Shown here: in pieces, positions 3,001 to 6,000 of the stretch | Layout: each line of letters opens with the position of its first letter | How positions within the stretch are numbered: the stretch's first letter is position 1 | Made by a program: the position numbers | Virus record (IMG/VR): IMGVR_UViG_2534682325_000026 | Direction: 5' to 3' (one strand) | DNA: 15,065 bases | DNA from: a virus | Lineage: Duplodnaviria; Heunggongvirae; Uroviricota; Caudoviricetes

Positions 3001-6000
3001 GATTCTGCAAAAACATTTGTTCAGGAGACTCTGAAAGATACCTGGGAATCTTCTGACGAGTGGTTTGTTCACTAATAAACACGTAAATCGGTAACGGCTG
3101 GAAATCATTCAATACTAGCACTATCGAAAGTTCACCAGCCAACCGCAGTACGTTCTTGCATACGAGGTGCCGCGTTTTACATGTCGTACCGAGAATTAAT
3201 TTCATTTTACGAAAAGTTAACCCGCCATTGCTATCTTAATTTTTTAAAACGAAGTTACCTCTGTCAAGGTCAAAAGCACAATTATCTCTTCCTACAATCA
3301 TTGAAACTGCGATTGACTCCCTGCTCAAAGGATGAGCCGCCCTTGTTTTAACAAGATGTATTAATGCCATTTTATCATACAACATACAAACATTTGAATT
3401 CATTGAATTCCTCATAAATACCCCATCTTCTGGTTCACATAATGTAACAGGGCATGTTCGTAAGCTCTCTGGCACTTGCAATTGTGCATGCTCCACATTA
3501 AATGCACATACTTCAATTTTATCTAACAACTCCTCTAACTGGTAGTTAGAAAGCAAATCCATATTTTCGAGCATCTCAATTTCACGCAGTACTGTAACTT
3601 CACGGCTTGTCAAACTACCATGATTAAGTGTACGTTCAATATGTTCTATATATTGAAGGCCAATCTGGATATTATCATTCGATAAACCATCCTGGTTAAG
3701 ACTTCCCATAAAATATCCATTTACCTGCATAGGTCGTATTGACACCATCAACTCACCCAGTCTTATTTGAGCTTCTCCACGAATAGTCTGATTACGTATC
3801 TCAGACAGGGTTTCTTGAGGAATGTCAGACAAAAAACTAACCCCAGATAAAATATAAGGCGTTAAATCTACAGGCATTCCTCTCCCTCCATTTTAATAAC
3901 TTAATTTTGCTTTAGTAAAAAACAAAAGCACATAAAACTATATTTATATCATTAATTATCACTTACAACAAAAAGCTTCTCTTTTTGTATCAAAGTGACA
4001 TTCGTCTTTTCTCATAATCATTGATTCTGTTATAGGTTCTCGACTCAGAGGATGAGCTCCACCAGTTTCAACAAGTTGCACTAACGCGTCCTTATCATAT
4101 AGAGAGCATATCTCAGCACCTTGTGAGTTTCTCATGAACACTCCATTCTCAGGTTTGTCCAGCGTTATCGGGCATGTCAAAAATGACTCCGGGCAAGAAA
4201 AGTGATTAGAATCCGTTCCAAATACACAAGAATTTATTTTTTCCATTAATATTTTATTACCTGTTTTATTTTCTCTGTGTTCTGCCATGACACTCTGAAA
4301 ATAGTTATTAACACTACTTAAAAAATCGACACCTCCATTTAATTGCCTTTCCAGAGCCACAGCCCTTCTATCCATTCGATGCTCACGCCCCAATAGCCTA
4401 TCCAGTAAGCCTCCTCTCACCGGTTCAACTGAAAATCCATCCAGTAGTTGGACATAGTGAACAGAATATTGGCCACTACCAATGGATATTCTTATTCCAC
4501 TTTCAAGTCTGGCAGCATCCTGCAAAGACTGTACTCCTGCAGGAGATAATTGAGATATACTTGGGATACTTAAGGTGGTAACAGGCATAAAAACCTCATT
4601 CAGTAATTCATATCAGTTTGCAGGATGTTTCATTAAATAAAATAAAGGGTAATGTTCATTTCAATTACCCTTTATAACGAAGTTTCCTCTGGTATCGTCA
4701 TAAATGCATTCTTCATGTTTTACAATTATTGATGCCGTTATTGGTTCCCGGGTCAGTGGGTGGGGTAAGTCTTCACCAGTCAAACGAGAAAATGCAGCGG
4801 CATCAAATAAAGTACATACATCTGAACCATCTGAATTCTTCACAAAAACACCTTTTTCAGGCTGCTCCAGTGTAATTGGACATTGAAGCGCATCACCAGG
4901 ACATTGAAGTTTTTCAATATCGACAGTAAAGGCACACTCCGATATTTTTTCCTGCAAAGAGTTTCGCCCTCCCATTCCAGGGAGCGCACTTAATATCCTG
5001 TTTCTGAGCACATTAACTCCATCATTAAAAGCAATATTCAATAATTCTGCATAAACCCGTCCCTGCCCTTCACTTTCTGCTAAAAAACGGCCTGTATCTG
5101 GCATATAAGAAACTCTAACCCTCTCCCCTCCCAGGAGAAATCCACCAATCTGCCCCTCCATTACCTGCTGACGCAGCTCCATCATCTCATTCACGAATGA
5201 AGCCGATGACACATATGATATTAATCCAGGCATTACCATGCTCCTTCATACGGATAAATATTCCCTCAAGTCTTCATTAACAAACATCCACCGGACATGA
5301 CAACAAAAACCGGAGCCGGACTCCGGTTTTGTGAAGCTGTCGGGTTACTTCATCCCGCCAATATTTTCCCACGTCCCGTCAGCACGCAGGATTTGCAGCG
5401 GTCTTACCACACACTGTATCTGCTTTTTATCCGCATCCAGTATCACCACCTGCGTGATTACCCTGACCTGCTCCGGGATAATGCCATTCTCATCTGACTC
5501 CAGGATGTCTGCCGGCCCCAGTCGCAGTTGTACTGTAAGCGACTGCCCGTGTTCACAGTCATCATGCTTTCCGCAACCGCACAGACGCTGCATAATTTTT
5601 TTTAATATGTTCATGTCATTCTCCTGTTCTGCCTGTATCACTGCCCACTTCATCCAGCCCCTTAACATCCTGCCACGGCCCGTCACCAAACCTGACCTGC
5701 AAATGCTGAAAAAAAACCTGAACCCGTGTGGCATCTTTGGGGGCAAGAAAGGTCAGTCCGGTGATGAGTGCGCCATCTGTATCCGGGAACCAGCCATTGC
5801 TGTTTGTCTCAATAATGTTTCCCGGCCCCAGACGAAAACGGATTTGTGTCTCCCCCGGGTCGCCCTTCGGTCCCTGAGGTCCGGTTGCCCCCACCGGGCC
5901 AGTCGCACCTGTTTCTCCTTTCGGTCCCTGTGGGCCTGCCGGGCCTGCCGCACCGGTATCTCCCTTTGGACCCTGTGGACCTGCATTTCCCGTCAGACCG

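Follow-up and report, generated by a model that had tools for sequence, protein, structure and literature searches.

A conserved PfC-domain gene directly behind the side tail fibre gene of an Escherichia coli O157:H7 prophage, possibly encoding an accessory protein of collagen-type fibres

Ghosh et al. 2012 set out the architecture of EPclA-type fibres and identified the C-terminal PfC domain of the collagen-like fibres EPclA and EPclB as the trimerization module that nucleates the collagen helix and lets it refold; the PfC of EPclA was shown to form trimers by size-exclusion chromatography with multi-angle laser light scattering (SEC-MALLS) (PMC3368898). In Mu and P1, an invertible second tip-like coding segment, the G segment and the C segment, respectively, lies beside the fibre gene. 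Lambda Tfa, Mu U and P2 G (Caudo_TAP) are encoded by small genes that lie directly 3' of the fibre gene and are exchanged with the distal fibre, and stf-tfa modules are exchanged between phages. Here we describe a locus that combines a fibre of the EPclA type with a small gene of this placement. It lies in the viral record IMGVR_UViG_2534682325_000026, a stretch of 15,065 nucleotides analysed as a whole and termed the window below, which is a degraded lambdoid prophage of E. coli O157:H7 integrated at dusA. The subject is a small open reading frame (ORF) that encodes a stand-alone PfC-domain protein and directly follows stf, the side tail fibre gene.

The gene has been encountered before under several names. 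Sp5 ORF68 (ECs1229), 933W L0122, phi24B gp59, AU5Stx1 atfT and PHROG 576 are all the same gene, 88-98% identical and 89 amino acids in length, and the copies of Sp5, 933W, phi24B and AU5Stx1 have the same junction to a PfC-ended fibre gene and the same terminator as the copy described here. The name atfT, for "alternate tail fiber tip", is given in GenBank KU977419, while L0122 is the name used for 933W. The fibre in the window is a 437-amino-acid EPclA fibre of a degraded long-tailed prophage at dusA, whereas the short-tailed Shiga toxin (Stx) phages carry a 645-amino-acid EPclB fibre. Being present in Pfam, PHROGs, the annotation of the Prokaryotic Genome Annotation Pipeline (PGAP) and two papers, the gene, its domain assignment and the main hypotheses on its role are already known. 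What is added here is the difference in selection on the two PfC domains, the invariant junction, the co-occurrence with the fibre together with the copy number, a mobile block of 0.87 kb, and the link to detected peptides.

The reading that we prefer, with a probability of roughly 45%, is that the small ORF is expressed as an accessory protein, probably trimeric, of the PfC-type fibre. The gene itself is genuine, conserved and under purifying selection, it is always tied to a PfC-ended fibre, and it is translated; the trimeric state and the accessory role are what we infer beyond this. On this reading the ORF would be a genuine late gene of the side-tail-fibre module that arose by an old duplication of the C-terminal PfC domain of the fibre. 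A 27-residue N-terminal segment, for which a short helix is predicted and in which a C-x-C-x2-H motif is conserved, takes the place of the collagen shaft. The ORF would be co-transcribed with stf and translated by coupling, across a junction of TGA, one base and ATG, for which the final codons of stf provide the ribosome-binding site, as the last gene before a terminator hairpin. Since experiments have shown that the PfC of the fibre forms trimers by itself, the product is most likely a small homotrimer, in effect a shaft-less fibre head. It may aid the assembly or stability of the fibre, or may associate with the distal fibre in small amounts.

The minus strand at 5345-5614 encodes a protein of 89 amino acids followed by a stop, MNILKKIMQRLCGCGKHDDCEHG...GGMK. 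The protein matches PF06820 with 117.8 bits (cut-off 25; E 2.7e-34), residues 28-89 aligning with positions 1-64 of the 64-position profile; the Stf tip likewise covers the profile in full length. The corresponding Pfam matches of Stf are PF08400 (E 6.3e-69), PF01391 and PF06820 (E 3.5e-35). PF06820 is the sole Pfam match of the small protein, which is thus a single-domain member of the family; it has neither a collagen nor a PfN domain and hence does not share the EPclA/EPclB fibre architecture. The PHROG search assigns it to phrog_576, a "tail fiber protein" family (E 2.5e-59, residues 1-89 on profile positions 1-89 of 89), and PGAP names the product WP_001023355.1, "phage tail fiber C-terminal domain-containing protein". 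Pfam, NCBIfam and PHROG return only PfC or tail-fibre families and no membership of the Tfa family, NCBIfam and PADLOC leave the protein unmatched, and a sequence search of the PDB gives nothing up to E 1. The family is narrow, with 81 clusters at 50% identity, mostly fragments, among 1.84 billion representatives.

The first-pass annotation had described the ORF as a stand-alone paralog of the tail-fibre tip domain that starts 1 nucleotide past the stf stop, and both statements are borne out. BLASTP aligns residues 28-88 of the small protein with residues 365-427 of Stf at 20 identities in 63 positions (32%; E 3e-10), and the Smith-Waterman score of 93 compares with 23 +/- 3.9 for shuffled sequences (n = 2000; z 17.8). 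The similarity was originally thought to extend over the last ~75 residues of Stf; it covers 63 residues, and the final 12 residues of Stf have no counterpart in the small protein. This highly significant protein similarity is accompanied by a weak resemblance of the DNA, with 54% identity over the aligned codons and a longest exact match of 10 nucleotides, which indicates that the duplication is old. Compared with the fibre PfC, the small protein is shaft-less and 32% identical, carries an additional N-terminal helix and Cys/His segment, and is far less variable. We also note a distant relative of 565 amino acids, P0145, in which a unit similar to the C-terminal half of PfC (VVVLDAD...GILQVRRADGTW.EIPA) is repeated four times in tandem, N-terminal to a collagen region; the PfC motif therefore occurs outside Escherichia prophages as well, in repeated and non-terminal form.

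The N-terminal 27 residues have no counterpart in Stf. A short helix is predicted at residues 3-12 in a low-confidence AlphaFold2 (AF2) model and is followed by C12-G-C14-G-K-H17. This segment had been singled out as Cys-rich; of its Cys and His residues, only C12, C14 and H17 are conserved across copies, as is C68 in the PfC domain, whereas C20 is replaced by R, and H22 by N or D, in some copies.

At the junction between the two genes, the stf stop codon TGA (5616-5618) is separated by one base (5615) from the ATG of the small ORF (5612-5614), and an AGGAG element at 5621-5625 lies six bases 5' of this ATG, within the last stf codons. The junction string AGAACAGGAGAATGACATGAA was invariant in the 53 loci that an exact-pattern search retrieved, apart from one synonymous change further upstream. 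The frame of the small ORF remains open for 44 codons 5' of the ATG (5615-5746, minus strand), overlapping the PfC of stf, which explains why the gene is annotated with 129-135 amino acids in 933W (L0122), in AU5Stx1 (atfT) and in some database entries. The 89-amino-acid form is the one supported by the ribosome-binding site, by the PHROG profile and by PGAP.

The same junction invites the explanation that a fraction of ribosomes shifts into the +1 frame at the stf stop (GAA TGA C ATG), adding D and 89 residues to the fibre and thereby producing tandem PfC heads. The small ORF is indeed in the +1 frame at a UGA-C stop with AGGAG just upstream, a context that loosely resembles the prfB frameshift site, where an AGGAG-type element lies 3 nucleotides upstream. 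As far as can be judged from the sequence, the GAA codon in the P site cannot re-pair in the +1 frame (AAU), and AGGAG overlaps this GAA, unlike the arrangement in prfB. Mondal et al. 2016 saw no frameshift signal in Sp5 (PMC5155283). The authors of the phi24B virion proteome included hypothetical fusions of the fibre and gp59, "Fusion_6159_FS1/FS2", in their search database (10.64898/2026.04.10.717836). Only in the low-molecular-weight band EA1829, which contains a 74-amino-acid protein as well, are the counts for the fusion entries higher than those of the fibre, and no junction peptide (TGEDMN..., MNILK...) is found among the phi24B peptides listed. A partial fusion is very improbable. That the ORF is simply a frameshifted piece of a longer stf, an objection raised at the outset, is excluded by its own ribosome-binding site, its ATG and the conservation of the 89-amino-acid product.

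A hairpin directly 3' of the small ORF, with an 11-bp stem and a U-run (-25 kcal/mol, z -4.7 in the RNA fold), is likely to be the intrinsic terminator that closes the late operon. A simple terminator scan did not list it. The hairpin is kept behind the small ORF in all loci, and in the phage collection this stretch occurs solely behind the small ORF (297 records). PGAP places a "tail assembly protein" pseudogene of 26 codons at 5266-5343 on the minus strand, spanning the hairpin and its flank. The stretch was considered as a remnant of a lost lambda-type tfa, and this candidate was dropped, the sequence being that of the terminator hairpin found in phage records solely behind the small ORF; the pseudogene annotation is doubtful.

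The relation between the small ORF and the fibre was followed in a set of 80 IMG/VR loci, one E. albertii contig and phage AU5Stx1. In every locus that extends upstream, a PfC-ended fibre gene stops 1 nucleotide before the ATG of the small ORF, so that the spacing is identical wherever both genes are held, and the small ORF is kept everywhere as a separate gene of 89 codons; this arrangement holds for all 84 related loci. A tblastn search found the small protein in 296 phage records at 88-98% identity, nearly all of them Stx1- or Stx2-converting phages. Among 5426 complete E. coli genomes, the small ORF occurs in 698, at 6807 places with a median of 11 per genome, and the Stf PfC segment in 697, at 6160 places with a median of 10 per genome. 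By these counts the two are inseparable; both are confined to ~13% of the complete genomes and are highly amplified there. When one genome per species was scanned, only E. albertii and a 725-bp contig labelled "Xanthomonas pisi" were found. The latter (L083, NZ_JPLE01000138.1) carries the E. coli junction of Stf PfC and small ORF at 93-96% protein identity and is most likely a contamination of the Xanthomonas assembly.

The small gene travels with the distal part of the fibre. Comparison of the window with the short-tailed Stx1 phage AU5Stx1 by blastn gives a single block of 872 nucleotides at 95.9% identity, which begins with the collagen region and ends shortly after the hairpin; the N-terminal half of the fibre and the sequence past the terminator remain unaligned, and elsewhere only a stretch of ~72% identity inside lom is found. 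This single near-identical block indicates that collagen shaft, PfC, small gene and terminator move as a unit between unrelated tails. In this respect the small gene holds the position that tfa has in lambda, moving with the distal fibre. It differs from Tfa, U and G in having no sequence relationship to them, in accompanying a fibre that folds without it (PMC3368898), and in being dispensable in its Sp5 form (PMC5155283).

Homology among the prophages ends ~70 nucleotides past the stop of the small ORF, where variable effector cargo starts. The 3' end of the small ORF recurs in partial form (73-78% protein identity) ~0.7-1 kb downstream, within the effector cargo before nleG-like genes, at 4683-4829 in locus L007, 4340-4408 in L023 and 5047-5115 in L024, and also in L056 and L063-L066. 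These partial copies resemble scars left as cassettes were inserted serially through recombination at the border of small ORF and terminator, and probably account for the ~650 surplus places of the small ORF relative to Stf PfC in the E. coli genomes.

To compare selection on the two genes, the small ORF was represented by 60 distinct DNA versions and the last 80 codons of Stf by 50, for which the ratio of non-synonymous to synonymous differences per site (pN/pS) was pooled over all pairs. The small ORF has a pN/pS of 0.17 as a whole, 0.08 in the PfC part and 0.27 in the N-terminal segment, while that of the Stf tip is 0.42-0.46. The synonymous divergence pS is 0.13 for the small ORF and 0.14 for the Stf tip, a resemblance which places the conservation of the small gene at the level of the protein and not of the DNA. 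In the small PfC, 13 of 33 changes are non-synonymous against 76% expected under neutrality (binomial p 9e-6), and 84 of 85 copies of the small ORF are intact and of identical length. Purifying selection on the small gene is firmly established by these data, and its PfC domain tends to be more constrained than the Stf tip.

These figures also bear on the view that the ORF is a functionless, decaying duplicate that only its linkage to stf and gene conversion among prophages hold in place, or, as first suggested, a remnant of tip exchange. The homolog in Sp5 is non-essential (PMC5155283), and many database entries are truncated or fused, as a decaying gene would lead one to expect. The intact copies of uniform length, the pN/pS of 0.08 at normal synonymous divergence and the detection of peptides, described below, refute decay, which we regard as the least probable of all explanations and effectively as excluded.

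The variation of the two PfC domains takes different forms. In the small PfC, variation is essentially limited to positions 50 and 80. The variation of the Stf PfC (5652-5843) is concentrated in few mosaic hot spots (GN/AS/MS/MR, N/H/Y/Q, D/G, D/A, R/Q and F/L/M/V), a mosaic that fits, as expected, a ligand-binding surface reshuffled by recombination among the ~10 copies per genome.

Mondal et al. 2016 suggested that the gene is a silent or semi-silent spare tip that is occasionally recombined onto stf and thereby changes receptor specificity (PMC5155283), and the first-pass annotation had also offered a spare tip for recombinational switching; the GenBank label "alternate tail fiber tip" expresses the same idea. 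The small ORF adjoins the resident tip and has the same domain and orientation, ~10 copies per enterohaemorrhagic E. coli (EHEC) genome would provide abundant partners for recombination, and two database chimeras join the parts in question: P0065 combines a collagen region with the PfC of the small ORF, and P0117 the N-terminus of the small protein with the PfC of Stf. Such chimeras are rare and appear to be accidents, P0065 being situated at the very start of a draft contig and P0117 being joined out of register, and no full-length fibre with the tip of the small ORF is present among the homologs listed. Homologous exchange is not favoured, because the DNA identity is 54% and the longest exact match 10 nucleotides. 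Moreover, the small gene is near-invariant across copies and the resident tip is the variable one, so that it could offer one alternative at most, and it has kept an ATG, a ribosome-binding site and an N-terminal segment of its own, evolves under purifying selection and is translated. Unlike the Mu G and P1 C segments, the small ORF lies in the orientation of stf and, with a start codon of its own, is translated as a separate product. The window contains a single inverted repeat of at least 25 nucleotides, that of an insertion sequence (IS) element at 9005-10314, with none flanking the small ORF, and the recombinase domains among the scanned ORFs of the window are those of the prophage integrase and the IS transposase, with no invertase. 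A spare tip thus appears unlikely, and the idea is poorly supported.

Evidence of expression comes from the supplement of the phi24B virion proteome, in which ADGTWENIGGMK and VITQVVILDADKK, both specific to the small protein, were recorded with 3 spectra each (10.64898/2026.04.10.717836). The small protein is thus translated, is probably free rather than fused to the fibre, and is at most a trace component of virion preparations. The text of the phi24B cryo-electron microscopy preprint of 2026 does not discuss the small gene (10.64898/2026.04.10.717836).

The same observations can be reconciled with a free protein that has a function unrelated to the assembly of the fibre. It could be a soluble, tip-like trimer that is set free at lysis and binds a ligand on the cell surface, serving as a decoy or blocker, or else a factor for lysogenic conversion or host interaction, encoded at the edge of the effector cargo. 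In favour of this, the small protein is conserved and translated, yet dispensable for infectious Sp5 (PMC5155283), and is at trace level in virions; the gene also borders the variable effector cargo, which here consists of three nleG genes. Judged by its sequence, the protein has neither a signal peptide nor a convincing lipobox, the start MNILKKIMQRL being too short and too polar. The gene is tied to and moves with the distal fibre and not with the cargo, which differs among loci, and the protein has no PADLOC or NCBIfam match. An independent function is accordingly doubtful, though less so than a spare tip. A lipoprotein or superinfection-exclusion factor with LCGC as lipobox was also considered and was rejected on account of the missing hydrophobic signal sequence.

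Several points weigh against an accessory protein of the fibre, the reading that we prefer. The peptides of the small protein are at trace level, 3 spectra each compared with ~2267 for the fibre; the protein is therefore not stoichiometric in the virion, and contamination could account for its presence. In the absence of the small protein, recombinant EPclA fibre still forms trimers, and its collagen helix refolds (PMC3368898), from which it follows that a chaperone is not strictly needed. In the systematic in-frame deletions of Sp5 made by Mondal et al. 2016, ORF68 was among the non-essential late genes, as tested on K-12 (PMC5155283). The difference in constraint between the two PfC domains is borderline when the synonymous and non-synonymous site counts are compared directly (Fisher p 0.05-0.09). 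Between small-protein variants and Stf-tip variants there is no co-variation beyond linkage; they combine near-freely, which we attribute to intense recombination among the copies; there is no sign of variant-specific pairing. The AF2 monomer model, built on a 7-sequence alignment, reaches a pLDDT (predicted local distance difference test) of 56 and gives no confident structure, and the phi24B authors likewise obtained no confident AlphaFold model for this domain (10.64898/2026.04.10.717836).

Among the roles that the first-pass annotation proposed, the tip-derived assembly chaperone comes nearest to the accessory protein preferred here, in a form weakened by the autonomous trimerization of the fibre (PMC3368898) and the dispensability of the Sp5 homolog (PMC5155283). 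An accessory protein of this kind may exert its effect on natural hosts rather than on K-12, and its role would then not be visible in plaque or lysogenization assays on K-12. More speculatively, the shaft-less PfC trimer with its N-terminal Cys/His knot might represent a new type of accessory protein, one that docks on, caps or templates the distal ends of collagen-type fibres or binds a second surface ligand, and in this way tunes adsorption. If so, adsorption would be tuned on gut E. coli that bear O-antigen, in long-tailed and short-tailed phages that carry Stx or effector genes. The module of collagen-PfC fibre and small gene is present in about ten copies per EHEC genome, beside type III effector loci, and also on Shiga-toxin phages. 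The biological role of the lateral fibres is raised as a question in the phi24B preprint (10.64898/2026.04.10.717836), and the role of a conserved partner gene would help to explain how these phages find their hosts and spread stx and effector genes.

The coordinates of the locus are collected in Table 1. On the minus strand, the C-terminal fragment of J, lom, stf, the small ORF, the hairpin terminator and three nleG effector genes follow one another, while the left end of the window holds a DinI-like gene, the integrase and dusA on one strand or the other. The region 5200-7000 is 100% identical to many O157 chromosomes.

Table 1. Coordinates of the fibre module and its neighbours in the window
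Feature	Coordinates	Strand	Details or basis
J (tail-tip gene), C-terminal fragment	7661-8314	minus	
lom	6994-7593	minus	
stf, EPclA-type side tail fibre (PfN, coiled coil, collagen, PfC)	5616..6935	minus	Pfam, annotation
stf start according to PGAP	ATG 6929	minus	
Stf PfC domain, paralog of the small protein	5652..5843	minus	Stf residues 365-428
Small ORF, stand-alone PfC-domain protein	5345..5614	minus	89 codons + TAA stop
N-terminal segment of the small ORF, 27 residues	5534..5614	minus	outside BLASTP and Pfam matches
PfC (PF06820) domain of the small protein	5348..5533	minus	residues 28-89
Coupling junction	5615..5625	minus	AGGAG, last stf codon GAA, TGA, one base
Hairpin + U-run, likely intrinsic terminator	5300..5330	minus	RNA fold
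Block common to AU5Stx1 (collagen shaft, PfC, small ORF, terminator)	5295..6165	minus	blastn

Further strong, terminator-like hairpins are situated on the minus strand between the J fragment and lom (7623-7642) and between lom and stf (6946-6967). These intergenic hairpins indicate that lom and the pair of stf and small ORF are each bracketed by terminators within the late operon.

A direct repeat of 117 nucleotides (83% identity) of the 5' end of dusA, at 1466-1582 and 13634-13750, presumably represents the attachment-site duplication around a prophage remnant of ~12 kb. The content of this remnant comprises the integrase, DinI, three nleG genes, the fibre module, lom, the J fragment, DUF2303, exonuclease fragments and PrtN. 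The IS element at 9005-10314 belongs to the IS3 family and has inverted repeats of 25 nucleotides (88% complementary) and ORFs with HTH_Tnp_1 and rve domains at 9059-10272. It is not present in the otherwise matching FDAARGOS_293 (L001), so that the strain of the window has an additional insertion.

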